A stretch of 64,000 nucleotides of DNA from a bacterium (GCA_021108215.1 JAIORK010000037.1:20352-84351), one strand, 5' to 3'. Shown: positions 11,972 to 28,981, numbered from the stretch's first letter. Numbers and translations: made by a program. Notes: generated by a model not told the origin, from the sequence alone.

Positions 11972-11979
11972 CGTCTCCC

Positions 11980-12801: not shown

Positions 12802-12845
12802 TGTTTCAATCCTCGCCATTAAACTAGAATTTAATAACCAATTAT

Positions 12846-13643: not shown

Positions 13644-13660
13644 TTCACTGCCTCCAGCTT

Positions 13661-14527
13661 TCATTGTTTAATAATGAACATCATTGCTATATTCTTTGGA
13701 CGTGTTTCATTGCCGCCTGTTACCTCGCAACCTTCTGTAAATTCATTCATTCCATACACACCTCTCATTACACTCATTGTTCCGGCTGTTGTTCCATAAA
13801 TTGCTGGTTTTTGTCTGTGATCATGACTTTGTATTTCGAAATCCTGTTTTGTTCCCACAATATCCCCAGTTGCTCCGTCGCCACGTGCAGTCCTTGATGT
13901 TGCATCAGGATCTACTCCTGCACCATGACTCCAGCCTCTTGGAAAATACCCTCTGAAGTCCGGAATATTAAAATCCGTACCTGAACCACCATATGAGTAT
14001 CCTATGGCAGCAAATAAGTGGGGGTACGAAGAAGTGCTTAACCTGTTGCCAGCACATTCCATCCATCCATCCGGCGCTGTCTCCATAGGCCACATCACAA
14101 TCGTACCACTCGGTACAACTCCCCAACCTGAGGCAACTTTGTTAGCTGTAATCGCCCCATCTGCCACTGTCATGGCATAGGCGGAAGTTCCTAGCTTTTG
14201 CCTCGGTGTCATCTCTGCGTTTGTGCCGACCTGGATGCCCACCCAGAGGGGTTGATTAAAAATGGATGGTGTCAAGGCTGTAGAATTTCCGAGTACTGTG
14301 TTGAAGTAGCCGTTTTGTGTTGCTACACTCTGTGCTTCTTCCCAGACCATGGTGCCGCCACTTTCGGCAGCATAGAGACGGAAGGTTACTGAGTATTGAC
14401 CATCTGTAACCGGTTGCTGTGTACTATTCATCAAACGGCCTTGGTAGTTGAGGGTATTGGGGATGGCGGCTTTAATAGAAAAAGGTAAAATAAAAATTAT
14501 TGTAAAAATGAGTAAACAATGTTTCAT
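13661..14527 (-). CDS. Secreted tail-fibre-like protein, paralog family member, with a canonical phage tail-collar domain
   Basis: The N-module is followed by GTIVMWPMETAPDGWMECAGNRLSTSSYPHLFAAIGYSYGGSGTDFNIPDFRGYFPRG..QSHDH..ETRPKNIAMMFIIKQ. This is a close match to the tail-collar consensus (P.GW..C.G..L....Y..LF..IG..YGG.....F..PD.RG). Confidence 0.75.
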   Translation of the reverse strand: MKHCLLIFTIIFILPFSIKAAIPNTLNYQGRLMNSTQQPVTDGQYSVTFRLYAAESGGTMVWEEAQSVATQNGYFNTVLGNSTALTPSIFNQPLWVGIQVGTNAEMTPRQKLGTSAYAMTVADGAITANKVASGWGVVPSGTIVMWPMETAPDGWMECAGNRLSTSSYPHLFAAIGYSYGGSGTDFNIPDFRGYFPRGWSHGAGVDPDATSRTARGDGATGDIVGTKQDFEIQSHDHRQKPAIYGTTAGTMSVMRGVYGMNEFTEGCEVTGGNETRPKNIAMMFIIKQ

Positions 14528-14536
14528 AATTCCACC

Positions 14537-15448
14537 TCAATCCTTTACTTCCATGTCATTACCGCCAAAAGCAATGACTGACAATTCTGCATACACAACT
14601 TTTGCCAGATTATCGTTCCCCTGTGCCCAAACGTAGATAGAAATATTATGTTGGCCTGCTGATACTTCTTGCAATGTCATCATAGGTATCACACTATTAG
14701 GACCATCACCACTTGTTGCATAACCTTCATATTGAAAAAAGACGGGATCTGTTTCTATCCATGTTTCATCCAGTTTAATTTTAAATGATATACCCTGCAA
14801 TGTTTTAGAATGTGTGACAGAACCATAAAATAATATTTGCAGTATAGAATCGCTTTCAACTTCTATCTTCAAATCCAATTCAGGTATGTGCTTATCTCCG
14901 GTATTGCCTGCAATTTCCACGTCCGGTTCAAAGTCAATTGCTTTCTTTGCATAACCTAATTTCATCTTTGATAAAGTAACCGCTTTATCAGCAATATCAT
15001 TTTCTTCAATCCCTCCATCTTTTATCTTGTTTGAAGTAATAGCATTATCTTTAAGCTTATCTGTTGTAATCACATTATCAGCAACCCCTATTGCATACGC
15101 TGCAGTGCCAAGTTGTTGCCTTGGTGTCATTTCTGCACCAGTTTCCATCTGAACACCTATCCATAATGATTGATTGAAATCTCCCATATTCAAACTAGTT
15201 ATATTCCCCAACACTGCATTGAAGTATCCGTTTTTCGTTGTTACGATTTGTGCTTCCTGCCACAAAATATTTCCGGCTACAGGAGTGGTATATAATCGAA
15301 AGGTTACAGAACAATCTTTGTCTGCGACCGGATGGTTTTCATTAACCATCAACCGGCCTTGATAGTTGAGTGTCTTAGGGATGTCGGCATGAGAACTGGT
15401 ATTTATCGTTAGTAATACCATAAAAACAATCATAATTATTTTCTTCAT
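14537..15448 (-). CDS. Secreted tail-fibre-like protein, the most divergent paralog, with a type-B tip
   Basis: The signal peptide is ...INTSSHA and the N-module is diverged (DIPKTLNYQGRLMVNENHPVADKDCSVTFRLYTTPVAGNILWQEAQ). The fibre repeat stretch is extended (ITTDKLKDNAITSNKIKDGGIEENDIADKAVTLSKM). The tip ends in SAGQHNISIYVWAQGNDNLAKVVYAELSVIAFGG. Confidence 0.6.
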   Translation of the reverse strand: MKKIIMIVFMVLLTINTSSHADIPKTLNYQGRLMVNENHPVADKDCSVTFRLYTTPVAGNILWQEAQIVTTKNGYFNAVLGNITSLNMGDFNQSLWIGVQMETGAEMTPRQQLGTAAYAIGVADNVITTDKLKDNAITSNKIKDGGIEENDIADKAVTLSKMKLGYAKKAIDFEPDVEIAGNTGDKHIPELDLKIEVESDSILQILFYGSVTHSKTLQGISFKIKLDETWIETDPVFFQYEGYATSGDGPNSVIPMMTLQEVSAGQHNISIYVWAQGNDNLAKVVYAELSVIAFGGNDMEVKD

Positions 15449-15476
15449 TTCAGCCCTTCCTTTACGTCAATATTTG

Positions 15477-15506
15477 TGTAGGGGCAATTCATGAATTGCC
15501 CCTACA
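15477..15506. repeat. REP-like perfect 30-nt palindrome TGTAGGGGCAATTCA/TGAATTGCCCCTACA
   Basis: Read directly from the sequence. It is intergenic, between the stop of 15508..16335 and the start of 14537..15448, and has a GTAG 5' motif on both strands. Confidence 0.75.
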
Positions 15507-15507
15507 A

Positions 15508-16335
15508 TCATTTTATTTTTATTATCCATACAACTGACATATTAATTGGTCTTGTTTCATCTCCTGCATCCGCGCCCGTCACATTACCAACAGTGGCATT
15601 ATCCGAGTCTATACTATATTTGTCATTTCCACTGTCTGCATCCTTTGAAGAAGACTTTCTTCTTTTAGCAGATGTTGTATGCCCATGTTGTCGAAGTTGG
15701 TCCGCTTGGGGTGTGCCCGAAATATTACTTCCGCGAAGAAATCTTTTCTCACCATTTAGATCTGGAACAATTCCACCGTGATAAGGACTTTCCAAATCGT
15801 CTACTATCTGACCATTACACTCCACAAATTGATTAGGCAAATCAGGTGTAACAGCTAAATATGACTTATGCCAAGCCAAGATTGTTCCTATGGGAATATC
15901 TGCACCAGGTGCAATTTTATCAGCAGTAATTGATCCATTTGCTATTTTCCCAGTTGTAATCCCTCCATCCACCACGGTCATGGCATAGGCTGATGTGCCT
16001 AACTTCTGCCGAGGCGTCATCTCAGCATTATTTCCCACCTGAATGCCTACCCATAGAGGTTGATTGAAAATCGAGGGTGACATGGATGTCACCGCTCCCA
16101 AAGTTGTGTTGAAATATCCGTTTTTCACATTCACAGACTGCGCTTCTTCCCATACCATAGTTCCACCGCTTTCTGCAGCATAGAAACGGAAGGTTACTGC
16201 ATATTGACCGTCGACAGCAGGTTGGTTAGCGCTATTTATCAATCGGCCCTGGTAATTGAGGGTGTTGGGAATGTCGGCAAATGAAACCGATGCTATTGAA
16301 ACTATAATTATGAGTACCGTGATTATTTTTTTCAT
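15508..16335 (-). CDS. Secreted tail-fibre-like protein, paralog family member, with a collar-like tip
   Basis: The N-module is followed by IGTILAWHKSY..PNQFVECNGQ..VPDLNGEKRFLRG..RQHGH..ETRPINMSVVWIIKIK. The C-terminal 16 aa are identical to those of 7876..8712. Confidence 0.65.
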   Translation of the reverse strand: MKKIITVLIIIVSIASVSFADIPNTLNYQGRLINSANQPAVDGQYAVTFRFYAAESGGTMVWEEAQSVNVKNGYFNTTLGAVTSMSPSIFNQPLWVGIQVGNNAEMTPRQKLGTSAYAMTVVDGGITTGKIANGSITADKIAPGADIPIGTILAWHKSYLAVTPDLPNQFVECNGQIVDDLESPYHGGIVPDLNGEKRFLRGSNISGTPQADQLRQHGHTTSAKRRKSSSKDADSGNDKYSIDSDNATVGNVTGADAGDETRPINMSVVWIIKIK

Positions 16336-16387
16336 GTGTCAACCCCCATTGTTTCTTTCTTTTCTCCTGTCATCCCCACCCTTTTGT

Positions 16388-17131
16388 TTATTCTTTCTCG
16401 CAAAACACACAATCAATATAGGGTGGCAAGCTACTCGCATCATCCACTGTATGCGTATGTTGCCCATTGGAGCTGGTTGTACCACTATAGGTATGTCTAT
16501 GGTGATTATCCGCTACACGGTTTCCGCTGCTGTTTTCCCCTTCTGTAACACTATCTTCTTCACTTGTCGTTCCACTATAAGAATGGTTGTGGCTACCGGC
16601 TTCCTGCATAGTATGCGTATGCGTTTCACTCCCGCCTGTAGCACCGTATTCTGAAGCACCTCTTACAAATTTGCCGTCAAATTCTCCCACCCGCTTGTAA
16701 CCAATAGGACAGGTTGCTCCGCGCCATAGGATGATCGCGCCTTGGGGCACAGCATTTTGTCCACCCGCCACGGACATGGCATACGGCGCAGCACCTAACT
16801 TCTGTCGGGGGGTCATTTCGCTCTTATCACTAATCTGAATTGCCATCCATAAAGCCTGGTCGAATAATGCGGGACTTAATGCGCTTGATCCGCCTAAAAC
16901 AGTATTAAAATACCCGTTGCTTGCCGTCACTGTCTGCGCTTCTTCCCATACCATAGTTCCTCCGCTTTCTGCGGTATAGAGACGAAAGGTTACGGAATAA
17001 TTACCTTTCGCTACGGGTTGATGGGCGCTATCCATCAGCCGTCCCTGGTAGTTGAGGGTGTTGGGAATGTCGGCGAAAGCTATTCCGGCTGTCACCCAAA
17101 TCACTGCCAGAATCAATATTGTTTTTTTCAT
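16388..17131 (-). CDS. Secreted tail-fibre-like protein, paralog family member, with a collar-like tip rich in HxH motifs
   Basis: The N-module is followed by GAIILWRGATCPIGYKRVGEFDGKFVRGAS..GGSETHTHTMQEAGSHNHSYSG..NHHRHTYSG..GQHTHTV..LPPYIDCVFCEKE. Confidence 0.6.
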   Translation of the reverse strand: MKKTILILAVIWVTAGIAFADIPNTLNYQGRLMDSAHQPVAKGNYSVTFRLYTAESGGTMVWEEAQTVTASNGYFNTVLGGSSALSPALFDQALWMAIQISDKSEMTPRQKLGAAPYAMSVAGGQNAVPQGAIILWRGATCPIGYKRVGEFDGKFVRGASEYGATGGSETHTHTMQEAGSHNHSYSGTTSEEDSVTEGENSSGNRVADNHHRHTYSGTTSSNGQHTHTVDDASSLPPYIDCVFCEKE

Positions 17132-17213: not shown

Positions 17214-17792
17214 TCATTTGACGACCGCGACTTTAAGAATTTTCCGGCTATTGCCGATCTGCACAACCACCACATATATCCCGCTGCCCACAGTTGAGTG
17301 ATTGGTATTCAATCCCTGCCAGACAACCGACCAGAAATCATCCAAAGGATTGCCGGTATTGGAAGCCAGGGGATCATATTCCTGATCCACCACAGTTTTG
17401 ACAAACTCACCCAGAAGATTATAAATTTTAATCGTGACTCTTTTTCGTTCAGAGCCAACACGAAATTGGATCACGGTTTCTTCGCCTTGAGTGGGATTAA
17501 ACTTGTTGTTCACTGCCCAGGCAATGCGTCCTTCCGGCAGTTTGGCCTTGATATCATCCTGATTAAACACACTAATGGCCTGTAAAAACCCGGAAATCAA
17601 CAAATGAACATCATTGTTCATGGAACCGATAATGGTCTCTCCCAAACTCCCCAGCAGGGTATAGGTTGTATTGGATTGAAGCCCTCCTGCTGAATTGAGA
17701 TGCCGTTCATTGATGCTGTACTCATCATCTGTCATGGCCCATCCTGTTGATGCCAGCAGGCATATCGCTATTACTATAATTATTTTTTTCAT
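17214..17792 (-). CDS. Small secreted protein with a FlgD-Ig/T9SS-type C-terminal domain
   Basis: The start is trimmed to MKKIIIVIAICLLASTGWA. The C-terminus is NPTQGEETVIQFRVGSERKRVTIKIYNLLGEFVKTVV...VVWQGLNTNHSTVGSGIYVVVVQIGNSRKILKVAVVK. This follows the pattern v.i.IYn.lGe.V...WdG.n..G..v.sGiY seen in FlgD-like/T9SS sorting domains. Confidence 0.55.
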   Translation of the reverse strand: MKKIIIVIAICLLASTGWAMTDDEYSINERHLNSAGGLQSNTTYTLLGSLGETIIGSMNNDVHLLISGFLQAISVFNQDDIKAKLPEGRIAWAVNNKFNPTQGEETVIQFRVGSERKRVTIKIYNLLGEFVKTVVDQEYDPLASNTGNPLDDFWSVVWQGLNTNHSTVGSGIYVVVVQIGNSRKILKVAVVK

Positions 17793-17836
17793 GTTCCCTC
17801 CTGTCCCCACAGTTTTCAGGCACTGTGCTCCTTGTC

Positions 17837-19141
17837 TCATTCTTCTTTTCCTTTTCCGGGCGTTTCTACAATCGCCCATACTTTATCGTCAATATCCATA
17901 CTCAAACCCTGAACCTCTGCCAAGCTGATGTTCGGATCAACCATTTCTATGATGATCCCGGCAATAGGCGCACCTTTGGCATCCAGCAGTGAACCGGAGT
18001 AGCCTTTTTTGATGCCATGATTACGACCGATATTTAATACAATCTGATTGACCAATCCGCCTTTTCGCCGGACTTCCAGCACCTGCGCCTGCACCCGGGT
18101 TGCATCCTTTTCAGGCTTTGCAGTAACCTGCATGTCTGCAACCATTTCTTCAAGCAGATCCGCCTGGGATTTTTCCGGTTCTGCCGGTTTATCGGATTTT
18201 CCTGTGCTCTTGATAGGTGCCAGGACATATCCCAAACTCACCCGGTGCGCCGAATTGAGCACTTCCACAAAATTGAGCGCATAATTCAGGCTAAAATTTT
18301 GCCATACAACACCCAAACCGGCAGTAATCCCGCCCATATCAACGCCTAATTTGTAACCGCCGCGTACAGCCACCATATCTGCGATAAAAACTTCCAGACC
18401 CACATTACCGTTCCATTTTTCTTCCAAATCATACTGTACATCTCCGGCAAATCTGATATTCACCACCGGATCAGGATCAAATGCATACGACAGTCCGGCC
18501 AGTCCATAAGCAGGCAGAGGATCTGCGGTAGTATCATATTGAATGGGCGTTCCGATGTTTTTCAAAGCCAGACCCACATTGAGATTTTCCGCCAATGGTT
18601 TAATCTCGTAATACACTCCAAGATCACCTGCCAATGCAAATGCCGAATATTCTTCGACCAATGTCGAATAAAGCATCTTCGCACTGACACCGAACGCCAC
18701 TACCTGTCCCATAATCCCAAAGCGCTTGGCTGCGCCCAAAGAGAGGAGCATATCCCTCTGCGCGTTGATATTGCTGATATCGCCATCATAAGTCACCAGC
18801 TCCATCACGCCGGCATCATAATAGAGAAAATGACTCATCATGTTCCAACCATCGCGTAAACGCATATCATAAGAAATGGAACCAAATGCATCTTCCGCCA
18901 ATCCACTGTAATACGTTGCTGCAACACGCGGATGTTTGATGTCGAGCAATGCTGCGGGATTATAGTCATAGGCAGCCGAGCCCTCCCCCAATACAGCTGC
19001 CTGGGCATTTCCCATCCCGGCTGCGCGTACATTGATCTGATTTTTCAGCAGCAATCCCGAACAGGTTGTGGAATCCTGCGCATAGACACTCGAAATTATA
19101 AATATTGCGCCTAGCATGGTCATCACAGTTTTCTTGTTCAT
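17837..19141 (-). CDS. Outer-membrane beta-barrel of FadL/PorV-like type with an extra C-terminal soluble domain
   Basis: It has a signal peptide and the N-terminal motif NVRAAGMGNAQAAVLGEGSAAYDYNPAALL, typical of FadL/PorV-like barrels. Alternating beta pattern extends to about aa 310. A linker rich in K/P/E follows, then a ~100-aa domain (VLEVRRKGGLVNQIVLNIGRNHGIKKGY). Confidence 0.45.
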   Translation of the reverse strand: MNKKTVMTMLGAIFIISSVYAQDSTTCSGLLLKNQINVRAAGMGNAQAAVLGEGSAAYDYNPAALLDIKHPRVAATYYSGLAEDAFGSISYDMRLRDGWNMMSHFLYYDAGVMELVTYDGDISNINAQRDMLLSLGAAKRFGIMGQVVAFGVSAKMLYSTLVEEYSAFALAGDLGVYYEIKPLAENLNVGLALKNIGTPIQYDTTADPLPAYGLAGLSYAFDPDPVVNIRFAGDVQYDLEEKWNGNVGLEVFIADMVAVRGGYKLGVDMGGITAGLGVVWQNFSLNYALNFVEVLNSAHRVSLGYVLAPIKSTGKSDKPAEPEKSQADLLEEMVADMQVTAKPEKDATRVQAQVLEVRRKGGLVNQIVLNIGRNHGIKKGYSGSLLDAKGAPIAGIIIEMVDPNISLAEVQGLSMDIDDKVWAIVETPGKGKEE

Positions 19142-19205: not shown

Positions 19206-20354
19206 TCACCATTTGGCCATCTCCATGCGGCGTTTGGTTTCCGCATTAATGGGAATATTCAAATAGATATGTGAAAAGTGCTTAAAACCGATCTCATTGT
19301 TTGTGAGATCAATATCCTTGCACACGATTTTCAATGCTTTTTGAGTGGGTTCGTCCAATTGGGCTGTCACTGCAACATCATGCCCGTATAAATAGAGCCA
19401 TCCCTGGACTACTGCGATAATCTCTGAACGATTCATGTAGCGGTAATAATTGGCAATCTGTTCCATCACGTACCGGTCCGGCTTGGCATCCGATCCCAGC
19501 AACCGCCAATAAGGCAGACGCAGATGGCGGCCCACCAACTGGATCACACTCGTCTCCACCAAAAGCCGCACTGCTGCATGACGGCCCTGAACTTTCTTGA
19601 TACTGCCTTTGGCGCCGAATGACTGTCCGAACAAACTGATACCCACCTCTTTATTACTCAATGCCTTACGCACTTCCATGGAATTGACTGTATTGATTTT
19701 GGGAATACCGGTCATGGTATTAAAATCCAGCAAATTAAAATCCAGTGTAATCCGCGCCAGACCCCATTTGCTTGCAGCGCTCAAACGCATATCAACAGCT
19801 GTGGAAGGCATATCCTGCGGCAATCCACTGAAATCAGCACCCAAACTTCCGTCTGTATTTGATCCCCGGGTCATGAGGCCGCGGTCAAACTCGGTCACCC
19901 CTCCGCTGAGCACCACATCCGGCAGGGCTTTATTACCCAAGGCGCCATAACCTGTCATGACTGTATTCTGAATAAAAGAAGGATCATACGGAATAAAAGT
20001 GACCTTGCCACCGATAGTATTCAATGTGCTTTTCATCATCTCTGTGATATCTCTGGGTATTTCATAACCAGTGGACGAAGAGCTGCCGGTGTTGTCCCCC
20101 AAAGGCTTGCACATAATTTTCATGGATGGCGTGTCATAGATATCTGTCATGATCCCCAAATCATTCAAAGCATTTGTAAATGAAGTCACCTTCATTTGGG
20201 GGAGGCTTTCTTGAAGTTCAACATCCACTTCACGCGGATCAATTGATGCGCATGCTGGAATCAACCCAATCATACTGATGCTGATCATGCTGAACCAAAA
20301 TCGCTTGAATTTTATTGGTTTCATAACCATGATACGCCACTCCTTTTTTTTCAT
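19206..20354 (-). CDS. CsgG/HfaB-family outer-membrane secretion lipoprotein (CsgG-like) with a ~90-aa C-terminal extension
   Basis: The lipobox-like signal is MIGLIPACAS. KIMCKPLGDNTGSSSSTGYEIPRDITEMMKSTLNTIGGKVTFIPYD resembles the CsgG N-terminal strand plus helix. ALPDVVLSGGVTEFDRG matches the hallmark A(D)y.l.G.vTEF(d). ARITLDFNLLDFNTMTG matches v.l.lrlvd..TGe. Its start overlaps the upstream gene's stop by 4 nt (20351-20354). Confidence 0.65.
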   Translation of the reverse strand: MKKKEWRIMVMKPIKFKRFWFSMISISMIGLIPACASIDPREVDVELQESLPQMKVTSFTNALNDLGIMTDIYDTPSMKIMCKPLGDNTGSSSSTGYEIPRDITEMMKSTLNTIGGKVTFIPYDPSFIQNTVMTGYGALGNKALPDVVLSGGVTEFDRGLMTRGSNTDGSLGADFSGLPQDMPSTAVDMRLSAASKWGLARITLDFNLLDFNTMTGIPKINTVNSMEVRKALSNKEVGISLFGQSFGAKGSIKKVQGRHAAVRLLVETSVIQLVGRHLRLPYWRLLGSDAKPDRYVMEQIANYYRYMNRSEIIAVVQGWLYLYGHDVAVTAQLDEPTQKALKIVCKDIDLTNNEIGFKHFSHIYLNIPINAETKRRMEMAKW

Positions 20355-20761
20355 TTTTCAATGACAATATTGATGACTTTGTCAACCGTACTACCGGATT
20401 CCACAACAATGCTGTTCTGATTGTTATCACCTGAACCATCATTTAAATTAATATTATTTTTATTTGATTTTTTCTTCTCTTTTTCCACATCTTTTTTAGC
20501 CTTTTCATTGCCTTTGGCCATGTCTTCCTTTTTAGCGGCATATTCCCATACCTTGGCATCCCCAAGAGCATCTGACACAATAAAACTGATATTGGTATCC
20601 GGTTTTCCCAAATCGTCATACTCTTTGATGCTGTCATCTTTGTACTTGGAAATATCATCATCAAAATCTCCGGCCGATACCATAACAGTCGTCATCCCGG
20701 TGATTAAAAAGCCTATTAACAACACCCTCAAACATCTCATCCCTACCATGTCATCCTCCAA
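20351..20761 (-). CDS. Small secreted acidic/Lys-rich protein with an Asn/Gln/Gly-rich C-terminus; candidate accessory or nucleator of the fibre system
   Basis: The 136-aa product has the signal-like MRCLRVLLIGFLITGMTTVMVSA (the start may be at 20740). The middle is low-complexity D/K/E. The C-terminus is NINLNDGSGDNNQNSIVVESGSTVDKVINIVIEK. It is translationally coupled to the CsgG-like gene. Confidence 0.45.
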   Translation of the reverse strand: MEDDMVGMRCLRVLLIGFLITGMTTVMVSAGDFDDDISKYKDDSIKEYDDLGKPDTNISFIVSDALGDAKVWEYAAKKEDMAKGNEKAKKDVEKEKKKSNKNNINLNDGSGDNNQNSIVVESGSTVDKVINIVIEK

Positions 20762-20841
20762 TCAAGCAATCATCTGTCGGCCATCACGGGCCAAACCACA
20801 CATCGACCCGCGATGGCCGCTATCCGTTCCTTTCTTTCGGA

Positions 20842-21450
20842 TTATTCCCCGACAATAGCACCCATGTTGGCTTCCGAATCCTCACCTACAGCAATATTCA
20901 TGGCTCCTCCATCAACTTCCACATTATTGGTCCATGTACTGCCGACATGGTATCCATCCTTTAAATCAATCGATCCCATCCGCGAGGTGGAATTTTTCCC
21001 CACTGCGACATTCAAGCCTGATTTAATTTCCACTTTGTTGGTGAGCTTACCGGTCACCCGGGAATTTTCAATATTGATTGAACCCATGGAAGCATTGGAG
21101 CCTTCCCCCACAGCGACATTCAGCCCTTCCTTAACATTGACATTGTTATTAAGCTGACCGGACACTTTGGCGCCCTTAAGACTGATCGAACCCATAGAAG
21201 CGGTGGAATTTTCCCCAACCGCCACATTGAGTGCCTGTTTCGAAAGTGTCACTTTGTTGGTCACATCCCCGCCTGCTGTAGACACACCATTTTTCATACG
21301 AATCGTGCCCATGTCCGCTTTGCTGCCTTTTTTTACCGCAATATTTGTCGAACCATCTACTTTTACGTCATTGGTAATATCTGCATGAACTAATCCGCTG
21401 CTGGAAATCACCAGAATGGCTGCCACCGCATAAATTATTTTTTTCATCAT
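20842..21450 (-). CDS. Secreted repeat protein (minor fibre subunit candidate) with 5-6 curlin-like Asn/Gly/Ser repeats
   Basis: The signal peptide is MMKKIIYAVAAILVISSSGLVHA. A ~33-36-aa unit recurs: LNVAVGENSTASMGSISLKG / LNVAVGEGSNASMGSINIEN / LNVAVGKNSTSRMGSIDLKD / MNIAVGEDSEANMGAIVGE. Confidence 0.6.
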   Translation of the reverse strand: MMKKIIYAVAAILVISSSGLVHADITNDVKVDGSTNIAVKKGSKADMGTIRMKNGVSTAGGDVTNKVTLSKQALNVAVGENSTASMGSISLKGAKVSGQLNNNVNVKEGLNVAVGEGSNASMGSINIENSRVTGKLTNKVEIKSGLNVAVGKNSTSRMGSIDLKDGYHVGSTWTNNVEVDGGAMNIAVGEDSEANMGAIVGE

Positions 21451-21485
21451 TCATTCCCCTTTCATTTTTTGTTTGCTCAAGCAGT

Positions 21486-23813
21486 TCATTTAAATACAAC
21501 TGAATTTTTATTGGATGCGCCACCTCCTATTGAAACATTGACATTCTGTCCGCTTACCCCGCTGAACGGTATATCGATATCATTGATCACAACCCCGGCT
21601 TTGGAGCTATTGCCAACACTCCCGCCGGCACTTCGATTCTTAATGATCACTGAACCGGAATTGGCCTCTGCACTTGATCCAATGGCGACATTGGTGGCTG
21701 TCATACCGGATACTTTGTTGGAAATATTTCCCTGGAAACTGCTGTTTTCCATGACCACAGAGCCTAAGTTGGCTTTGGCATCTTTTCCCAAAGCCACATT
21801 GGTGGCCACGCCGCTGCCGGTTTTATTGGAAATATTTCCGTGTACGCGGCTGTTTTTCAATTGCACAGACGAAACATTGGCAATGACATTTTTTCCGAGC
21901 GCCACATTGGTCACCACACCACCGGATGTCTTATTGCTGATTGAACCTTTGACAGCACTGTTTTTCATGTCCACTGCTGAAATATTGGCAGTCGCGTTTT
22001 TCCCTAAAGCCACATTGGTGCTCACGCCACCCGCACTGACATTCACGATGCTGCCGGCGGCAGTGCTGTTTTCCATATTCACTGCACCCTGCAGTGCTTT
22101 CACATCCTTACCAAGTCCCACGTTGGTCACGATCCCGCCTGCTGCGGTGTTCACCATGCTTCCCTTGACTTTGCTCTTCTCAAGATTGGCGCCGCCTTGA
22201 ACTGCTTTCACATCTTTTCCCAATCCCACGTTGGTCACAATCCCGCCTGCTGCGGTGTTCACCATGGTTCCTTTGACTTTGCTCTTCTCAATATTGGCGC
22301 CACCTTGAATGGCTTTCACATCCTTGCCAAGTCCCACATTGGTCACAATACCGCCAACTGCGGTGTTCACCATCGTTCCCTTGACTTTGCTATTCTCAAG
22401 ATTAGCTCCACCTTGAATGGCTTTCACATCCTTGCCCAATCCCACATTGGTCACGATCCCGCCAACTGCGGTGTTCACCATCGTTCCCTTGACTTTGCTA
22501 TTCTCAAGATTAGCTCCACCTTGAATGGCTTTCACATCCTTGCCCAATCCCACATTGGTCACGATCCCGCCAACTGCGGTGTTCACCATCGTTCCCTTGA
22601 CTTTGCTATTCTCAAGATTAGCTCCACCTTGAATGGCTTTCACATCCTTGCCCAATCCCACATTGGTCACGATCCCGCCAACTGCGGTGTTCACCATCGT
22701 TCCCTTGACTTTGCTATTCTCAAGATTAGCCCCACCTTGAATGGCTTTCACATCTTTGCCAATACCCACATTCGTCACTGTCGCTCCGGCACTTGTGTTA
22801 ATCACTGTTCCTTTAATTTTACTCTTCTCAATGTTGGCCGCTCCCTGGTTGGCTTTTACATTCTTGCCAATACCCACATTCGTCACTGTCGCTCCGGCAC
22901 TTGTGTTAATCACTGTTCCTTTAATTTTACTCTTCTCAATGTTGGCCGCTCCCTGGTTGGCTTTTACATTCTTGCCAATACCCACATTCGTCACTGTCGC
23001 TCCGGCACTTGTGTTAATCACTGTTCCTTTAATTTTACTCTTCTCAATGTTGGCCGCTCCCTGGTTGGCTTTTACATTCTTGCCAATACCCACATTCGTC
23101 ACTGTCGCTCCGGCACTTGTGTTAATCACTGTTCCTTTAATTTTACTCTTCTCAATGTTGGCCGCTCCCTGGTTGGCTTTTACATTCTTGCCAATACCCA
23201 CATTCGTCACTGTCGCTCCGGCAATGGTATTGACAACATTCCCTTTGACAGTGCTGTTCTTCAGAACTGTGCCGGCTTGATTGGCTTGGTTTCCTTTTCC
23301 AATCGCTATATTGGTAATCGTCTGTCCAACCGCAGTATTGATGCTGCTGCCTTTGAGTTTGCTGTTTTGCGCATCTACTGATGCCTGATTGGCGATATTT
23401 TTCTTTCCAATCGCTATATTAGTAATCGTCTGTCCCTGGTTATAGGTGGTGATCACACCTTTGGATTGGGTATTCTTCATGGATACAGATCCCATATTCG
23501 CCTTATTTTCCTTGCCAATGGCAATATTGACTTCCGTATCCGCGCTCCCGGTATTCACCAGGACTCCCTTCTGGCCGCTATTTTCAAGTTGGACAGATCC
23601 CATGTTGGCCTTATTTTTCTCTCCGATACTAAGATTGACATCTCCGGAACCTTTCTCGGTCTTGTTTAAGACAACACCCTTCACTTCTGACTCAGCATAA
23701 CTGTTCCAGGAAATATAAACCGTCATGGCCACTATCAAAACCAAACGCAAATACCCAAGACACCTGCTTCTTTTTTCCAACAAGGATATTCGATTCATTT
23801 TCCCCTCCCTCAT
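21486..23813 (-). CDS. Large secreted repeat protein (major fibre subunit candidate) with about 19 tandem 36-aa Asn/Gly/Lys-rich repeats, predicted beta-solenoid
   Basis: This is a 775-aa ORF. The likely start is MNRISLL at 23798, with the signal/anchor LRLVLIVAMTVYISWNSYA. A 36-aa period runs from about aa 60 to 735. Examples are GATVTNVGIGKNVKANQGAANIEKSKIKGTVINTSA and GGIVTNVGLGKDVKAIQGGANLENSKVKGTMVNTAV. The core N-[VI]-[AG]-[IL]-G-K-x-x-x-A-x-Q-G recalls curlin Q/N-x-G-x-G-N-x-A repeats. Confidence 0.65.
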   Translation of the reverse strand: MREGKMNRISLLEKRSRCLGYLRLVLIVAMTVYISWNSYAESEVKGVVLNKTEKGSGDVNLSIGEKNKANMGSVQLENSGQKGVLVNTGSADTEVNIAIGKENKANMGSVSMKNTQSKGVITTYNQGQTITNIAIGKKNIANQASVDAQNSKLKGSSINTAVGQTITNIAIGKGNQANQAGTVLKNSTVKGNVVNTIAGATVTNVGIGKNVKANQGAANIEKSKIKGTVINTSAGATVTNVGIGKNVKANQGAANIEKSKIKGTVINTSAGATVTNVGIGKNVKANQGAANIEKSKIKGTVINTSAGATVTNVGIGKNVKANQGAANIEKSKIKGTVINTSAGATVTNVGIGKDVKAIQGGANLENSKVKGTMVNTAVGGIVTNVGLGKDVKAIQGGANLENSKVKGTMVNTAVGGIVTNVGLGKDVKAIQGGANLENSKVKGTMVNTAVGGIVTNVGLGKDVKAIQGGANLENSKVKGTMVNTAVGGIVTNVGLGKDVKAIQGGANIEKSKVKGTMVNTAAGGIVTNVGLGKDVKAVQGGANLEKSKVKGSMVNTAAGGIVTNVGLGKDVKALQGAVNMENSTAAGSIVNVSAGGVSTNVALGKNATANISAVDMKNSAVKGSISNKTSGGVVTNVALGKNVIANVSSVQLKNSRVHGNISNKTGSGVATNVALGKDAKANLGSVVMENSSFQGNISNKVSGMTATNVAIGSSAEANSGSVIIKNRSAGGSVGNSSKAGVVINDIDIPFSGVSGQNVNVSIGGGASNKNSVVFK
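22095..22742. repeat. Tandem 108-bp DNA repeat, block A (6 units; the units at 22419 and 22527 are identical)
   Basis: Units start at 22095, 22203, 22311, 22419, 22527 and 22635, each beginning g(g/t)gctttcaca or close. I compared 22419-22526 and 22527-22634 base by base and they are identical. The unit at 22635 differs at one position. Confidence 0.9.
22743..23221. repeat. Tandem 108-bp DNA repeat, block B (about 4.4 units, three identical)
   Basis: Units start at 22743, 22851, 22959, 23067 and 23175. The 22851, 22959 and 23067 units are identical (ggcttttacattcttgccaatacccacattcgtcactgtcgctccggcacttgtgttaatcactgttcctttaattttactcttctcaatgttggccgctccctggtt). Confidence 0.9.
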
Positions 23814-24469
23814 GAATCCCGGGATACTTTGTCAAAATGTTGCATAAATACTTCGGCCGGTGATATCCGGGATTTGTTTTGTTCGATCCGGTAAAACCGC
23901 ACAAATTGTTTTTTTGCCCGCAGGAGCTGCACACCCACGGTTGTACAGGAGACAGAACATTCCCGGGCGGTTTCCAGATAGGTTCTGTCTTCAAAATAGA
24001 TTTTTAAAATGATCCGACGATATTTGGAAGGTAAATCCATCAAGGCCACCAGAACCCGTTTTTTCATCCGACCATGCAACAGATGATCGATATATCCGGG
24101 GTGGGCATCATCCGGCTGCTGATTTTCCAATACATTATTGTCTTGCAGAACACACCATGACATGCCGCACTGCTTGCGCCAATGCGCCATGCAGGCATTC
24201 ACCGTGATCCGGTACAACCAGGACCATAATTCCCCATCGTGCCGAAACATTAATATCTTTTTTTTCGCCAACACCCGCAGCATGACTTCCTGGGCCACAT
24301 CCTCGGCATCCATCTGGGATTTTAAATAACGGCGGCTCAACCCAACAATCCTGGGATAGTAACGCGTGTATAATATTTCCCCTGCATGTCCGTCCGCCTG
24401 GCGGTAGGCTTCAATGAGTTGAATGTCCGGCATCACATCCATACTCTCTCCTCCCTGATTCGCTAGCAC
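23810..24469 (-). CDS. ECF-type sigma-70 family factor
   Basis: Region 2 is DAEDVAQEVMLRVL...WSWLYRITVNACMAHWRK. Region 4 is LPSKYRRIILKIYFEDRTYLETARECSVSCTTVGVQLLRAKKQF. Its stop overlaps the start of the repeat-protein gene by 4 nt. Confidence 0.75.
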   Translation of the reverse strand: MLANQGGESMDVMPDIQLIEAYRQADGHAGEILYTRYYPRIVGLSRRYLKSQMDAEDVAQEVMLRVLAKKKILMFRHDGELWSWLYRITVNACMAHWRKQCGMSWCVLQDNNVLENQQPDDAHPGYIDHLLHGRMKKRVLVALMDLPSKYRRIILKIYFEDRTYLETARECSVSCTTVGVQLLRAKKQFVRFYRIEQNKSRISPAEVFMQHFDKVSRDS

Positions 24470-24864
24470 TGACTTGATTCCCGTCCAACTACTTGTTCTG
24501 GTTGTTGGTTTGCTTTTTGCAGAATTTCTTTCAGACTGTCCACTTCCACTGGTTTGATTAAAAAACGGGATATCCCTAACGTGGCCTGAATTTTTTGTAC
24601 CATTTGATTGAATTCCCAGTGCAAGACAACAATATTCATCCGGGGATGTGCAGGATACAAATTCAGCAGCACTTTATGATCAATATTCGATATGGTCTCA
24701 ATATCAATAAATAAATACTGAAATGAATTGCCGCCCAGCAGATCATCAAGCACAAGGTGATTGGTGCTGATATAGACTTTGAACAAATCAATATGCTCAA
24801 TCTGTTCTTTCAAAATATGTGCAGAATCAATATTGCCATCTACAATGAGTATTTTCCCGCTCAT
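24463..24864 (-). CDS. Single-domain response-regulator receiver (atypical acidic pocket)
   Basis: KILIVDGN (DD replaced by DG), FIDIE (phospho-acceptor Asp position) and FLIKPV (conserved Lys) match a CheY-like fold. It overlaps the ECF sigma start by 7 nt. The RBS GGGGGG lies upstream of the ATG. Confidence 0.5.
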   Translation of the reverse strand: MSGKILIVDGNIDSAHILKEQIEHIDLFKVYISTNHLVLDDLLGGNSFQYLFIDIETISNIDHKVLLNLYPAHPRMNIVVLHWEFNQMVQKIQATLGISRFLIKPVEVDSLKEILQKANQQPEQVVGRESSQC

Positions 24865-24905: not shown

Positions 24906-24922
24906 ATGCAGGATCTATGCCA
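24906..24922 (-). promoter_or_regulatory. Sigma54-type (-24/-12) promoter candidate
   Basis: The minus strand reads TTGGCATAGATCCTGCATT. That is TGGCAT-N5-CTGCA against the consensus TGGCAC-N5-TTGCA, with GG and GC correctly spaced. It sits about 40 nt upstream of the receiver ATG (24864) and immediately downstream of a sigma54-dependent activator gene. Confidence 0.5.
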
Positions 24923-25260: not shown

Positions 25261-25372
25261 CACGATAAAAATCCACGGGATTACCCGGCATCCGGCATAC
25301 GCCGGACAAGTTACGCCGGGCAGACTGCCCATGGCATTTTTGTCGAAAGATGTTCGCGCTATCACGATAAAA
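25261..25372. repeat. ~110-bp interspersed repeat, family 2, copy 1
   Basis: cacgataaaaatccacgggattacccggcatccggcatacgccggacaagttacgccgggcag...gttcgcgctatcacgataaaag aligns with 63201-63314 in the same orientation. It contains degenerate 13-16-nt internal repeats (acgccgg[ag]caag). It overlaps the last codons of the NtrC-like gene. Confidence 0.7.
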
Positions 25373-26750
25373 GTTGCAATTTTTTCAAAACCTGGCGCAG
25401 GTATTCAGGTTTCATACCCAGATAGTTGGCAGTTTGCGTAATTTTTTTTTGATGACGCTCATAATGAAAACCATAAAAAGCTTTTCTTATTTTAAATTCT
25501 TGCTCCTTTTCAAACTCACTAAATTCAGTATATTTCATTTGTTGCAACCGGGATTGGATCAATCCCACTGGATCATCTTCGCTGCTCTCATGAGAGGCCA
25601 AGGCTCCCTCCACATCCTTCAATCCCAGCGTATTACCACTGCATCGGTGAATGCCGCGTACAATACAGTTTTCCAGTTGCCGGACATTCCCGTCCCATTT
25701 CATTTGCTGGAATACATCCAGTACTTCCTGATCAATCTCTTTAATATTTTTATGGTTGTTTAACGCGAACAGATCCTTGGTCAAATAAGTAATATCCTCA
25801 CGTCGTTCCCTCAAGGATGGAATCGTCATAATATTTTTTTCAAACCGGTAAAACAATTCCTGTAAAAACCCGCCCTTTCTTACCATTTCACGAAGATTCC
25901 TGCTGGTGGCCGCCAAAATAATCACATCCACTTTTTTCTCAGTATTCGATCCAACCCGGCGAAAGGTCTTAAACTGAATGAACCTCAACAGCTTGGTCTG
26001 ATGACTGAGGGATAAATGCCCGATCTCATCAAAAAACAAAATGCCGTTTTCAGCTTTTTCCACCAATCCCATGTGATCACGCGTGGCATTGGCAAACGCA
26101 CCTTTTGTATACCCAAACAGCTCGGACTCAAACAATTCACTCGGAATACCAGGACAGTTGACATTGATCATAGTGCTGTTTCGCCGGTTACTGTGCTGAT
26201 GATACATTCTGGCCGCCACTTCTTTTCCTACGCCGGTCTCCCCTTCAAACAGGGTGTCCATATTGGCCTGGGCGGCCCGATAAATCTGTTTAGTAATATC
26301 CAATATCCGCGTTGATTTACCGCCTAAAATCCATTCCTGTTCCTTTTGAATTCCGAAAGACTGCGTTTCATCAATTGCACTTAATATTCCGGCAACCTTT
26401 TCAATAAATTCTTTATACTCAGTAATGGGTTTATAATCAAAATCATTCGCACCCATTTCAAGTGTTTTAACCAAAATGCTTGTATCACCAGTTCCGCTTA
26501 ACATAACAACCGGAAGTTCCTGCTTTGAATATTTTTTTCTCAATTTTTTCAGAGCTTCTATACCGGCGCGTTTGTCATTCACACCAAAATCAATATCTAA
26601 AAAAATAATTTCAGGTTGTGCAGCTTCGACAGCTTCCAAACAATGCTCACAATCCTCACTGAACGCAACCTGATAATTGTCCAATTCCATGCGCTCTTTG
26701 AAAATTTCCATAAAAGCAACATCATCATCAATAATTAGAATCCGCGCCAT
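25362..26750 (-). CDS. Sigma54-dependent response regulator (NtrC family enhancer-binding protein)
   Basis: The receiver has ILIIDDD..FLDIDF..DYKP. The AAA+ domain has GETGVGKEVAARMYH, FESELFGYTKGAFANA (GAFTGA-like), FFDEIG and ELFYR. The C-terminal HTH is TQTANYLGMKPEYLRQVLKKL. Confidence 0.85.
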   Translation of the reverse strand: MARILIIDDDVAFMEIFKERMELDNYQVAFSEDCEHCLEAVEAAQPEIIFLDIDFGVNDKRAGIEALKKLRKKYSKQELPVVMLSGTGDTSILVKTLEMGANDFDYKPITEYKEFIEKVAGILSAIDETQSFGIQKEQEWILGGKSTRILDITKQIYRAAQANMDTLFEGETGVGKEVAARMYHQHSNRRNSTMINVNCPGIPSELFESELFGYTKGAFANATRDHMGLVEKAENGILFFDEIGHLSLSHQTKLLRFIQFKTFRRVGSNTEKKVDVIILAATSRNLREMVRKGGFLQELFYRFEKNIMTIPSLRERREDITYLTKDLFALNNHKNIKEIDQEVLDVFQQMKWDGNVRQLENCIVRGIHRCSGNTLGLKDVEGALASHESSEDDPVGLIQSRLQQMKYTEFSEFEKEQEFKIRKAFYGFHYERHQKKITQTANYLGMKPEYLRQVLKKLQLLS

Positions 26751-28012
26751 TATTCCACCCTCTTTTTCGGACCAGGTCCATTCTTCGGCAATTGTACGAA
26801 AAATGTTGTGCCTTGTCCAAGTGTGCTGCTCAGTATGCTGACTTCGCCACCCAGCAATTTTGCCAACTCACGAGCATTGCTCAACCCGAGACCTGTACCC
26901 TCTTTTTTTGAGGGTAATCTTCTGAAGGGTTTAAATATCGTTTCCCAATGGTGCCTCTCAATCCCGGGACCGTGATCAGTAATTAATATTACTATCATCC
27001 CATGTTTCTCACCCAAATGGATATCAATGTCTGTCTGCACCCGGGTAAATTTAACCGCATTATCAATCAAATTCATAACAATACGTTCAAAAATATGTTT
27101 GTCGGTTTTCATAAAAATTGTTTCGGCGGGCAAATGAAGATGGATTTTTTTTCTTTCTTTGGAAAGTGTCACTTCAAATTGATTTTTCTTGTTTTTCAGC
27201 AATAACCCAACATCTTTTCCTTCAAGATTCAGCTTCACTTCGCGATGACTTAGGTTTTCATGATCACTTAGATTAAAAAGAAAACGATTTAATGCCCTGG
27301 ATTCTTCATGGGATAACTTAATATTATTCTGCAAATTCGGCACTTCCTCATTCCTTCCCAACAGGGTGTCCATATAATCCAGCCGTGTAGATATCCTATT
27401 TAATACTTTCCGGGCATCATGCGTAATTTTGGAAATAGTTTGTGATTTTTTTTCTTCAGCTTGCGCTAAAAAATAAAACGATAAAATCAGCGCCAACAGC
27501 AAAAGTAAAATGGCACTGATCGCCAGCAAAATATTGTCCTTGCGATGCATAAATTTTTCCAAAGTAAAAACAATCCTGAGCACAAAGCGTCCCTGGAGCA
27601 AATCCGGATGAAACGGCAGAATCGTATCAATTACCAAATAAAGGCTCTTGTCATTTGAATAAAACATTTCCGCATTCGATTCAGGTGGTTTTGTCAGCAA
27701 TGTTGTCAAAGATGAACTCTCGCCGGATTGCGTGGTCATCTCTTTATCCATGTACAATGCCATGTACTGAATGTGTGTGGTTGCAGTTAAAAGGCGCATG
27801 GTATCCAATAGATTGTCGTACTGATTTTCCAATAAATAATGCATCGCACTCTTGCTGATTTGTTCACCAAGATTTTTAGATTCTTGAATATGATTATTTT
27901 CCATCTCTTCAAGATTGATAAATAACATTGCGATTGCACCTAAACCTACGAGAACCGCAGTGATGGCCGCAATCATGAATCTGTTTTTTCTCCAGAACCG
28001 CTTACCTTTCAA
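26750..28012 (-). CDS. Sensor histidine kinase
   Basis: It has two TM segments, the H-box SKITHDARKVLNRI, the N-box MNLIDNAVKFT, the G1 box DHGPGI and the G2 box GTGLGLS. It is coupled to the NtrC-like gene by a 1-nt overlap. Confidence 0.8.
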   Translation of the reverse strand: MKGKRFWRKNRFMIAAITAVLVGLGAIAMLFINLEEMENNHIQESKNLGEQISKSAMHYLLENQYDNLLDTMRLLTATTHIQYMALYMDKEMTTQSGESSSLTTLLTKPPESNAEMFYSNDKSLYLVIDTILPFHPDLLQGRFVLRIVFTLEKFMHRKDNILLAISAILLLLLALILSFYFLAQAEEKKSQTISKITHDARKVLNRISTRLDYMDTLLGRNEEVPNLQNNIKLSHEESRALNRFLFNLSDHENLSHREVKLNLEGKDVGLLLKNKKNQFEVTLSKERKKIHLHLPAETIFMKTDKHIFERIVMNLIDNAVKFTRVQTDIDIHLGEKHGMIVILITDHGPGIERHHWETIFKPFRRLPSKKEGTGLGLSNARELAKLLGGEVSILSSTLGQGTTFFVQLPKNGPGPKKRVE

Positions 28013-28033: not shown

Positions 28034-28981
28034 CTAAAAAAGTTCCATGGCACTGTATTTTTCCGTCCATTGTTGGTATCTTTTTTCATCCTCCGGCGAG
28101 ATCGGCATGGCCCGGTCACAACCTAAAAAATAGAGCATCTGATGAAGTCCCGGATCTTCGTGCATTCGCGCAAAAAATTCCCCACATTTTTGAATGCGCG
28201 CCATTTTTTCCTTGTCTGCAGAAGCTCTGTAAAAAATAGGCAAATCAGCAATAGAATCCGGATGTTTAAGGAACGGCTGGATCGCTTCCCCCAATTCAGG
28301 CCGGAGTTTGGTAAAAACATCCAATGCATACTCGGTCTCCAACACCACATCCGTGGTCCGATAAAATAAAGAAAAAATTGAATTACGACTGCTGTTATAC
28401 ATTTTTACGGATTTAAAATATGTTTTTTCGTCATATCCGGCAAGCTTACTAAAAAAAAGATAGCGTATTTTATTTGTATCATGCGGATGGTTAATCCCAA
28501 GTGTTTTTCCCCGCAACTGGCCGACATGTTGAATATTATCTTTTTTTCGGACAATCAGTATGTAGTGATCATTGGACAATCTGCCGGCACGTTTTTTTTG
28601 CTGAAAACGAACCAATGGTTTGACCAAACTTTTCTTGTAATGCTTCAGAAAATTCACCAAATGACCACAACCGATGTCTGCCTGGTTTTCAGAAATTTTT
28701 CGATACATTTTCTTGTCATTTTCAAAAAAACGAAATTGTATCTGAAAGCCCAGTTGAGGAATCATATATTCATAGACCAAGGCTTTGTAAACTTCCATGG
28801 CTTCCCGCGGATTGACATAGTGTTGTAATCCCGATTTGGAAAGACAGAACACCACATCACTCGATTCGAACCCGTTGTTTTTGACCTGGGTGATTGTCGC
28901 TGCACCAACCGGCAGGGCAAGACAACCGATGATCAAGCATGTCCCTATTTTTAATCGAACAGCCTCAAAATACTTGTTCAT
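28034..28981 (-). CDS. Periplasmic solute-binding-like protein (PhnD-like fold suspected), probably a sensory partner of the kinase
   Basis: It has a signal peptide ...ALPVGAA. At 315 aa its size and pattern (LRGKTLGINHPHDTN...) resemble phosphonate-type substrate-binding proteins often found next to kinases. This is weak motif-level evidence only. Confidence 0.35.
   Translation of the reverse strand: MNKYFEAVRLKIGTCLIIGCLALPVGAATITQVKNNGFESSDVVFCLSKSGLQHYVNPREAMEVYKALVYEYMIPQLGFQIQFRFFENDKKMYRKISENQADIGCGHLVNFLKHYKKSLVKPLVRFQQKKRAGRLSNDHYILIVRKKDNIQHVGQLRGKTLGINHPHDTNKIRYLFFSKLAGYDEKTYFKSVKMYNSSRNSIFSLFYRTTDVVLETEYALDVFTKLRPELGEAIQPFLKHPDSIADLPIFYRASADKEKMARIQKCGEFFARMHEDPGLHQMLYFLGCDRAMPISPEDEKRYQQWTEKYSAMELF

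Follow-up and report, generated by a model that had tools for sequence, protein, structure and literature searches.

A stretch of 64,000 nucleotides of bacterial DNA (GCA_021108215.1, JAIORK010000037.1:20352-84351), hereafter called the window, carries on its minus strand, between positions 19206 and 24864, six open reading frames (ORFs) that all run in the same direction. We describe them here as a candidate secretion and assembly locus with a CsgG-like lipoprotein and two proteins made of 36-residue repeats. Read from 5' to 3', the genes encode a degenerate receiver-like protein, an extracytoplasmic function (ECF) sigma factor, a long (L-class) and a short (S-class) repeat protein, a small secreted accessory protein and the lipoprotein (Table 1). 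The spacing from gene to gene is -7, -4, +35, +80 and -4 nucleotides (nt) and, because it is overlapping or near zero, the six genes almost certainly form a single operon. The original prediction had proposed a curli- or holdfast-like fibre secretion locus of six co-directional, packed or overlapping genes. All six ORFs are present where it had placed them, but it had left out an adjoining partner gene that encodes a PorV/PorQ-like protein.

Table 1. Features of the locus and its immediate surroundings (positions within the window; aa, amino acids)
Feature	Position	Strand	Basis
PorV/PorQ-family outer-membrane barrel protein, 434 aa	17837..19141	-	NCBIfam PorV_fam
CsgG-superfamily lipoprotein (predicted fold), 382 aa, putative outer membrane	19206..20354	-	AlphaFold2 model, Foldseek, homologues
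Small secreted accessory protein, 136 aa	20351..20761	-	ORF, linkage, conserved ends
S-class repeat protein, 202 aa	20842..21450	-	5 units of 36 aa
L-class repeat protein, 775 aa	21486..23813	-	~19 units of 36 aa plus tail
108-bp tandem DNA repeats, near-identical, within the L-class gene	22096..23223	.	Tandem Repeats Finder
ECF sigma factor, 219 aa	23810..24469	-	Pfam, NCBIfam
Degenerate receiver-like protein, 133 aa; first gene of the operon	24463..24864	-	sub-threshold Response_reg
Candidate sigma-54 promoter TGGCATAGATCCTGCA (GG-N10-GC)	24907..24922	-	pattern match
NtrC-type sigma-54 activator	25362-26750	-	Sigma54_activat, Response_reg
Histidine kinase	26750-28012	-	HATPase_c

Pfam and NCBIfam scans returned no match for any of the four structural proteins (the lipoprotein, the L-class and S-class proteins and the accessory protein). 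Reading of the sequences revealed signal-peptide-like N-termini on the L-class, S-class and accessory proteins, whose mature forms have no Cys and almost no Pro or Trp. Asn, Gln and Gly together account for ~27-31% of the residues in the mature L-class and S-class proteins.

The L-class protein, in which about 19 copies of a 36-aa repeat had been predicted, contains 18 N-[VI]-[AGS]-[ILV]-G anchors spaced by exactly 36 residues, together with a degenerate first unit and a non-repeat tail, which is about 19 units. The mature protein has an isoelectric point (pI) of 10.2 and a single Pro. At the DNA level, Tandem Repeats Finder reported a period of 108 bp with 10.4 copies and 93% identity, and the gene includes two runs of identical 108-bp units (four copies of one and three of another). 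The array is a recent amplification of units; because identical units can collapse or expand during metagenome assembly, the copy number in the L-class gene is uncertain. The protein closes with a conserved tail of ~45 aa ending in SNKNSVVFK-COOH. This tail recurs across phyla, in 36 proteins of which 31 are distinct, and in related loci the end reads ...SNKNS[VI][VI]x[KRE]-COOH, usually with K. Lengths of L-class proteins range from 215 aa to 1698 aa, with some of the ORFs clipped at contig ends.

The S-class protein, likewise predicted as a 202-aa protein with related repeats, has four anchors spaced by 36, 36 and 38 residues and one degenerate unit, giving five units. It ends in ...EANMGAIVGE-COOH, and the corresponding signature in related loci is ...EA[NS]MGSVxxE-COOH. 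A period of 36 aa was the strongest in 89 of 116 repeat proteins. The consensus of 481 distinct 36-aa units is xVVNxAxGxxxTNVAIGxxxxANxGSVxMxNSxVxG, with near-invariant residues at N4, N13, A15, G17, A22, S32 and G36, of which N13 and G17 were set by the pattern used to extract the units; by eye, the unit falls into four sub-units of ~9 residues each. Because neither repeat protein matched Pfam or NCBIfam, curlin repeats, autotransporter heads or anchors, RTX repeats and type IX sorting domains are excluded at that sensitivity.

We modelled the S-class protein with AlphaFold2 (AF2) from an alignment of the window's own repeat blocks alone and obtained a regular, all-beta structure with a predicted local distance difference test score (pLDDT) of 82 and a predicted template modelling score (pTM) of 0.83. 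Its best neighbours in the PDB, none of them significant, were all beta-helices, with the FapC amyloid at the top (E 0.019, probability 0.09), and included tapirins, left-handed beta-helix enzymes, SufBD, pectate lyases and bactofilin. Because the model is all-beta and its nearest neighbours are beta-helices, we predict that the S-class protein is a beta-solenoid of a type unseen among solved structures.

The lipoprotein is composed of a lipobox Cys (C35) after a hydrophobic signal segment, a CsgG-like core of ~240 aa and a helical domain of ~100 aa. C35 is invariant across 34 homologues. The AF2 model made with these 34 homologues in the alignment had a pLDDT of 81 and a pTM of 0.71. When the model was compared with the PDB by Foldseek, the top 25 matches were all CsgG (E 1.4e-10 to 1.4e-4, probability 1.00), the best structures being 6l7c_A (E 1.4e-10) and 4uv3 (E 1.1e-9). 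The alignments span ~280 columns, and the best-matching forms of CsgG are the membrane-inserted and CsgF-bound ones. FlgT (5e-4), HpaA (2e-3) and the LPHT ring came next. In the monomer model long hairpin strands lie at residues 186-210 and 222-241, and the hydrophobic alternation expected of putative transmembrane hairpins is partial. Sequence and profile searches of the PDB with the lipoprotein found nothing, as did NCBIfam at E<=0.1; the fold search alone succeeded.

Pfam CsgG weakly matched 9 of the 34 orthologues (best E 0.002) and also matched 6 of 45 more distant relatives, with a best E of 2.2e-8. Because the fold matches CsgG and members of the family reach the Pfam model, we place the lipoprotein in the CsgG superfamily, as what the model indicates is a divergent member, and not in the curated family, to which its sequence does not recognisably belong. 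The predicted hallmarks of CsgG thus failed at the level of the Pfam model and stood at the level of the fold, where we regard the assignment as a CsgG-like channel as solid. The first homologue search with the lipoprotein gave 854 relatives, typically 50-60% identical, and a profile search gave 695 clusters at 50% identity (E<=1e-3). Homologues occur in Desulfuromonas, Trichloromonas, Nitrospirota and others, mostly unnamed or labelled 'DUF4384 domain-containing'. Among the distant relatives P0200-P0269, DUF4384 (15 of 45), TPR or Sel1 domains take the C-terminal position instead.

A C-terminal extension of ~90 aa had been predicted, and the model has ~100 helical residues there. PG_binding_1 matched this domain weakly in 16 of the 34 homologues and 11 of the 45 distant relatives, and the sole match in a PDB profile search with the domain was the peptidoglycan-binding protein 5tv7 (E 0.09); the window lipoprotein's own C-terminal domain gave no PG_binding match. 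It is plausible from these sequence matches that the domain is peptidoglycan-binding-like. Most orthologues outside the clade of the window continue past this domain into a long Pro/Ala/Gln-rich linker that terminates in a conserved I-G-R-x-L-x-D-E-E-W-COOH; the window protein is shorter, and its last residue is likewise Trp.

The accessory protein, whose true start may be an internal Met, was found as the 136-aa secreted protein that had been predicted, with the N-terminal peptide GDFDDDISKYKDD. The mature protein is acidic (pI 4.7). Its conserved acidic N-terminus bears the motif G-D-[FL]-D-D-x-I-S-x-Y, and a Lys-rich stretch links this to the C-terminal motif N-x-N-S-[VI]-V-x-x-x-G-S...I-N-I; the alignment across loci gives G-D-L-D-D-G-I-S-x-Y-T-D-D, a variable Lys-rich linker and N-E-N-S-V-V-x-G-x-G-S...I-N-I. 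A PDB profile search returned no structural relative, and an hhalign comparison with E. coli CsgF (probability 0.3%) detected no similarity. RefSeq labels the accessory protein of Desulfuromonas thiophila, like its LPP20-like protein (see below), 'hypothetical protein'. Homology of the accessory C-terminus with the L-class tail, both of which carry N-x-N-S-V-V, was considered and rejected as a general claim because a hidden Markov model (HMM) of the L-class tail matched just 2 accessory ORFs.

A scan of species-representative genomes yielded 201 relatives of the lipoprotein. The best 80 of the 201, on which the taxonomy is based, come from FCPU426, Elusimicrobia, Nitrospirota, Nitrospinota, Candidatus Scalindua and many Thermodesulfobacteriota, the last comprising Desulfuromonadales (including Geomonas), Desulfobacterales and Desulfobulbales. 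The proteins of the window were searched against all ORFs of 84 related loci, numbered here with L, which together with the window make 85 sequences. Of the 85, 79 have the accessory gene directly upstream of the CsgG-like gene, and ~75 have repeat proteins. The gene order is nearly always [L]-S-accessory-CsgG-like, S-class genes being near-universal and L-class genes occurring in slightly less than half of the loci. Exceptions to the order are mostly loci clipped at contig ends, and a few Desulfobulbales have the order CsgG-like ... L-S-accessory. The same genes in the same order in several phyla argue that the linkage on which the prediction depended is conserved; the module spans six phyla or more, and we regard the functional link between its four core genes as solid. 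One metagenome-assembled genome (MAG; CAZSAP01) has three copies of the module (L006, L010 and L011) and an FCPU426 MAG has two (L008 and L016), which suggests subunit diversification within one genome. In genomes with several copies the L-class proteins are very unequal in length, up to 1698 aa.

Genes downstream of the module fall into two sets. In the window, 64 nt downstream of the CsgG-like gene, lies the PorV-like gene, whose product matched NCBIfam PorV_fam above the cut-off (2.6e-33) and carries an extra C-terminal domain of ~90 aa. A match of this domain to FlgT_C extended over 16 residues (E 0.02) and was unusable. A PorV-like gene likewise follows the CsgG-like gene in L005, L006, L010, L011 and L016; in the sister lineages of L003, L007, L008, L009 and L017 it is substituted by a gene for a 190-205-aa protein that has only the C-terminal domain of the PorV-like protein (in L003 also a TPR). 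The PorV/PorQ-like gene is therefore a clade-specific partner. Most other loci have instead a ~114-aa protein (48 loci), an LPP20-family lipoprotein of ~244 aa (66 loci) and a ~92-aa membrane protein (47 loci), at 9422-10468 in L001 and L002 and 9521-11027 in L004; all three probably belong to the machine as well, and none of their genes occurs in the window.

The control of the operon is less uniform than its core. The sigma factor is an ordinary ECF factor, as had been claimed (Sigma70_r2 7e-15 and Sigma70_r4_2 1.5e-11 in Pfam; TIGR02937 sigma70-ECF 1.2e-20, above the cut-off in NCBIfam), with sigma-70 regions 2 and 4 only (group 4). The stop of its gene and the start of the L-class gene share 4 nt, and no anti-sigma factor was recognised near it. 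A linked ECF gene was found in only 3 of the 84 other loci (L011, L016 and L063), and the closest relative, L005, whose lipoprotein is 76% identical, has no ECF gene and an unrelated gene upstream. Because of this distribution the ECF gene is a feature of the locus and not of the system; it is clade-specific and outside the core module. The proposal that the module is under dedicated ECF control does not hold for the system: besides its rarity elsewhere, the ECF gene here sits inside the operon, behind a candidate sigma-54-type promoter and close to the gene of an NtrC-type activator. The first gene had been predicted to encode a receiver. Its ORF is present and overlaps the ECF gene by 7 nt, but the receiver match is sub-threshold (Response_reg E 6e-4, 20 bits against a cut-off of 30) and the protein is degenerate, being by eye without the second acidic residue and the conserved Thr. 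No homologue of it was found among the 84 loci, so that we have seen it in the window only.

The sequence TGGCATAGATCCTGCA, ~40 nt upstream of the receiver-like ORF, is the sole match to the sigma-54 pattern within the window; 0.42 matches are expected there by chance and 36% of shuffled sequences contain at least one, so the match is not significant alone. An element resembling it, TGGCATGTAGCTTGCT, precedes the ECF gene of L016 by 58 nt. A sigma-54 promoter as a general feature of the module was rejected, since the strict pattern occurs upstream of the first gene in just 8 of 58 loci, and the element is kept here as lineage-specific. Directly upstream of the operon lie the genes of a two-component system with matches to Sigma54_activat (2.4e-56), Response_reg (9e-18) and HATPase_c (1e-23), and in L011 a kinase, a sigma-54 activator, the ECF gene and the L-class gene are arranged likewise. 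It is a reasonable inference that in the clade of the window a sigma-54-dependent two-component system acts on the operon, including its ECF sigma factor. Adjoining the kinase/activator pair on its upstream side, the region 28034-30560 (minus strand) encodes a TolC-like outer-membrane efflux protein and, as a possible sensor partner of the kinase, a phosphonate-type periplasmic binding protein.

Three further regions of the window were noted. A 221-aa protein encoded at 17214-17879 (minus strand) gave a sub-threshold match to a type IX sorting domain (Por_Secre_tail 8.8e-5); its ORF shares 43 nt with the end of the PorV/PorQ-family gene and lies between the CsgG-like module and an array of fibre genes. 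This array, at 11177-17131 (minus strand), consists of seven tandem paralogues with a signal peptide, a conserved N-domain of ~130 aa (ADIPNTLNYQGRLM...MTPRQKLGTSAYA) and differing C-terminal domains, one a phage tail Collar (3e-22) and another a weak Gp10_C. The N-domain matched NCBIfam Bdello_MAT_N at 2.7e-10, below the cut-off, and the array resembles a set of cassettes for mosaic proteins, fibres or adhesins, of the MAT type of Bdellovibrio. The PorV-like protein may serve the repeat-protein module, the fibre array, or both. Between 46000 and 60000 the G+C content drops from ~0.45 to 0.35-0.38 across ~14 kb that include a 2264-aa ORF (52572-59366, minus strand) and an 819-aa ORF (50013-52472); the stretch may have been acquired, or may hold a gene for a giant surface protein.

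We consider it probable, well short of assured, that the locus specifies a system for secretion and assembly that is curli-like (type VIII-like) and has non-curlin subunits of its own. Pore formation, passage of cargo, polymerisation and the role of each protein are inferred from predicted fold, linkage, export signals and composition. The L-class, S-class and accessory proteins, unfolded and free of Cys, would be exported across the inner membrane by Sec. The lipoprotein would form an oligomeric beta-barrel channel in the outer membrane, tethered to the wall through its peptidoglycan-binding-like C-terminal domain. The repeat proteins would traverse this channel and fold outside into beta-solenoids of 36-residue units, and the solenoids would then stack or associate into a surface fibre or matrix. 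The S-class protein is probably the main or nucleating subunit and the L-class protein probably an optional second subunit of variable length, while the accessory protein may act as a channel-associated adaptor or chaperone, analogous and not homologous to CsgF or CsgE. In the lineage of the window the operon would probably be switched on by the NtrC-type two-component system via the sigma-54 promoter, with the co-transcribed ECF sigma factor as a possible feed-forward or downstream regulator. Secretion of the repeat proteins seems to us rather likely, and the formation of fibres is a step we hold tentatively, rating it a little under an even chance.

Several of our results weigh against a curli-like channel with fibre-forming cargo. 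Pfam CsgG (PF03783) did not match the window lipoprotein at E<=0.1. The hhalign comparison with E. coli CsgG gave a probability of 12.7% (E 0.0023). The alignment is, however, co-linear through the lipobox, D-x-T-G, [VI]-P-x-x-x-T-x-M and the hairpin region, a point in favour of the relationship. In this low-confidence alignment the Tyr/Asn/Phe of the CsgG constriction is not conserved, and the loop that corresponds to it, which has the sequence S-S-S-S-T-G-Y-E and lies between D-x-T-G and [VI]-P-x-x-x-T, has ~5 residues fewer. No homologue of CsgE, CsgF or CsgC had been recognised in the original prediction, and indeed no protein of the locus matched them in Pfam or NCBIfam, in line with the CsgF comparison above. 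On the side of the cargo, Curlin_rpt (PF07012) gave no Pfam match in either repeat protein, and an HMM built from 400 of the 481 distinct units scored E. coli CsgB at 2.1 bits and CsgA at -0.6 bits. The S-class model has no significant structural neighbour in the PDB by Foldseek and was made from a shallow alignment, and the promoter pattern is within what chance would produce.

The same loop, together with the C-terminal domain and the partners, would fit a periplasmic scaffold, in which the lipoprotein forms a non-translocating ring under the outer membrane, tethered to peptidoglycan, like the folds of FlgT, FlgP and HpaA, and the repeat proteins are periplasmic beta-helical polymers that stiffen or organise the envelope, with an LPP20-like or, here, a PorV-like partner. 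A peptidoglycan-binding-like domain would also suit such a ring or scaffold, as would the LPP20-like partner found in most other loci along with the ~114-aa and ~92-aa proteins, and FlgT, HpaA and the LPHT ring are what follows CsgG in the fold search. The matches to CsgG are, however, 5-7 orders of magnitude better than those to FlgT and HpaA and include the barrel-forming hairpin strands, and for these reasons we disfavour the scaffold and think it unlikely. The repeat proteins also look like cargo, since they are Cys-free, of a composition compatible with an unfolded state and variable in length, as are substrates of narrow channels.

If the repeat proteins do leave the cell, they need not polymerise, and could instead be monomeric beta-helical adhesins or a cell-attached coat. 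The conserved tail of the L-class and the fixed end of the S-class could cap or anchor such monomers, and many beta-helix fold neighbours (tapirin and pectate lyase, for example) are monomeric enzymes or adhesins. Against this, two subunit classes with an accessory protein resemble the logic of a nucleator and a major subunit, an S-class protein of 2-5 units seems too small for a stand-alone adhesin, and Pfam and NCBIfam recognised no anchoring domain; we therefore judge this alternative improbable, somewhat below the scaffold. A known adhesin family, for instance of the trimeric autotransporter type, exported by a type V, type I or type IX route, would be suggested by the motif N-[VI]-A-[IV]-G-x-x-x-x-A, which at the level of the motif resembles the NSVAIG of YadA-like heads, and by the PorV/PorQ-family gene and the type IX sorting-domain-like gene just downstream. 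The repeat proteins have no match to a head, stalk, anchor, type IX C-terminal domain or RTX repeat in Pfam or NCBIfam, no transport domain and no significant fold match in the PDB, and YadA-like structures are absent from the 50 best fold matches of the S-class model. Their period is 36 residues and not 14, their C-termini are short conserved tails and not translocator or sorting domains, and the PorV-like gene is missing from most loci. Identity with a known adhesin family is thus essentially excluded by HMM, fold, period and C-termini, and we give it very little credence. This leaves the curli-like reading as the one we prefer, and each of the three checks named in the original prediction, on kinship with CsgG, on known adhesin families and on linkage, supports it. 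A bolder version of it, possible and held about as tentatively as fibre formation, is that the module represents a third major and hitherto unrecognised family of Gram-negative fibres or functional amyloids beside curli and Fap, with a peptidoglycan-anchored CsgG-like channel and 36-residue solenoid subunits; its accessories would then be the acidic protein of ~110 aa and either the LPP20-like, ~114-aa and ~92-aa proteins or a PorV-like partner.

Our full-text searches found no paper on the module, an absence of evidence that is limited to the literature searched. Broad surveys of curli define these systems by curlin repeats together with CsgE, CsgF and CsgG (PMC3521004, PMC10192328), and because they require these components the present module would escape them. 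One of the surveys reports many 'non-specific CsgG hits ... likely paralogs' (PMC3521004), and a recent nanopore resource notes CsgG-like pores to be taxonomically broad and gives nothing further on the module (PMC13397529). CsgG-like lipoproteins are far more widespread than curli, and the module supplies a candidate cargo and adaptor for one large clade of them. Its repeats, too, make up a new family, marked by sharp conservation of the 36-aa unit, of the C-termini that distinguish the classes and of the tail module in the L-class. Cultured organisms that carry it include Desulfuromonas thiophila, Trichloromonas acetexigens, Geomonas sp. Red32, Desulfobulbus propionicus, Desulfosudis oleivorans and Desulfocicer vacuolatum. 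Should fibres form, environmentally dominant anaerobes would possess a functional-amyloid-like system of a new kind, and with it a new CsgG-type pore whose different constriction is relevant to nanopore engineering. On the bolder version given above, the system, widespread among Thermodesulfobacteriota that are anaerobic, Nitrospirota, Nitrospinota, anammox Planctomycetes and candidate phyla, could be a main component of the matrix or of cell-cell contacts in sediments, biofilms and syntrophic consortia.

Compared with known systems, the module shares a fold at low significance with the FlgT N-domain, HpaA and LPP20/FlgP, and LPP20-family genes are co-encoded in most related loci; those proteins, however, form periplasmic or surface rings without transmembrane hairpins, and the match to them is far weaker than that to CsgG. 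In the holdfast anchor of Caulobacter, HfaB is a CsgG-like lipoprotein, and co-encoded small secreted proteins form stable surface multimers. The HfaA/HfaB/HfaD system is, like the module, a set of three or four genes without CsgE or CsgF, but the structural proteins described here have no Pfam or NCBIfam match and so no Hfa relationship recognisable by those models, and Hfa proteins are not known to be built as long arrays of 36-aa repeats. With the Fap system of Pseudomonas (FapB/FapC/FapF) the module shares a pair of imperfect-repeat proteins, nucleator and major subunit, and stacked cross-beta structure, both the roles and the structure being predictions for the module. There is no sequence similarity between the two; Fap uses the trimeric FapF beta-barrel where the module has a CsgG-like lipoprotein, and FapC has 3 repeats with long linkers, whereas the 36-aa units are contiguous.

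The likeness to curli lies in a lipoprotein gene of predicted CsgG fold that adjoins genes for two putatively Sec-exported, Cys-free, Asn/Gly/Ala-rich repeat proteins, predicted to be beta-solenoids, and for a small secreted accessory protein of ~110 mature residues. Repeat number varies widely among CsgA homologues (PMC3521004), as it does in the present repeat proteins. The unit is 36 aa here and ~19-23 aa in curlin, whose motif S-x5-Q-x-G-x-G-N-x-A-x3-Q, as modelled by Curlin_rpt, has no similarity to it. The lipoprotein falls below the Pfam CsgG threshold, has an extra peptidoglycan-binding-like domain and, where CsgG has its Tyr-Asn-Phe constriction, has a shorter loop rich in Ser, Thr and Gly. 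Regulation would involve ECF and sigma-54 factors here and CsgD in curli, and the hosts of the module are anaerobes and candidate phyla, whereas those of curli are mainly Proteobacteria and Bacteroidetes.

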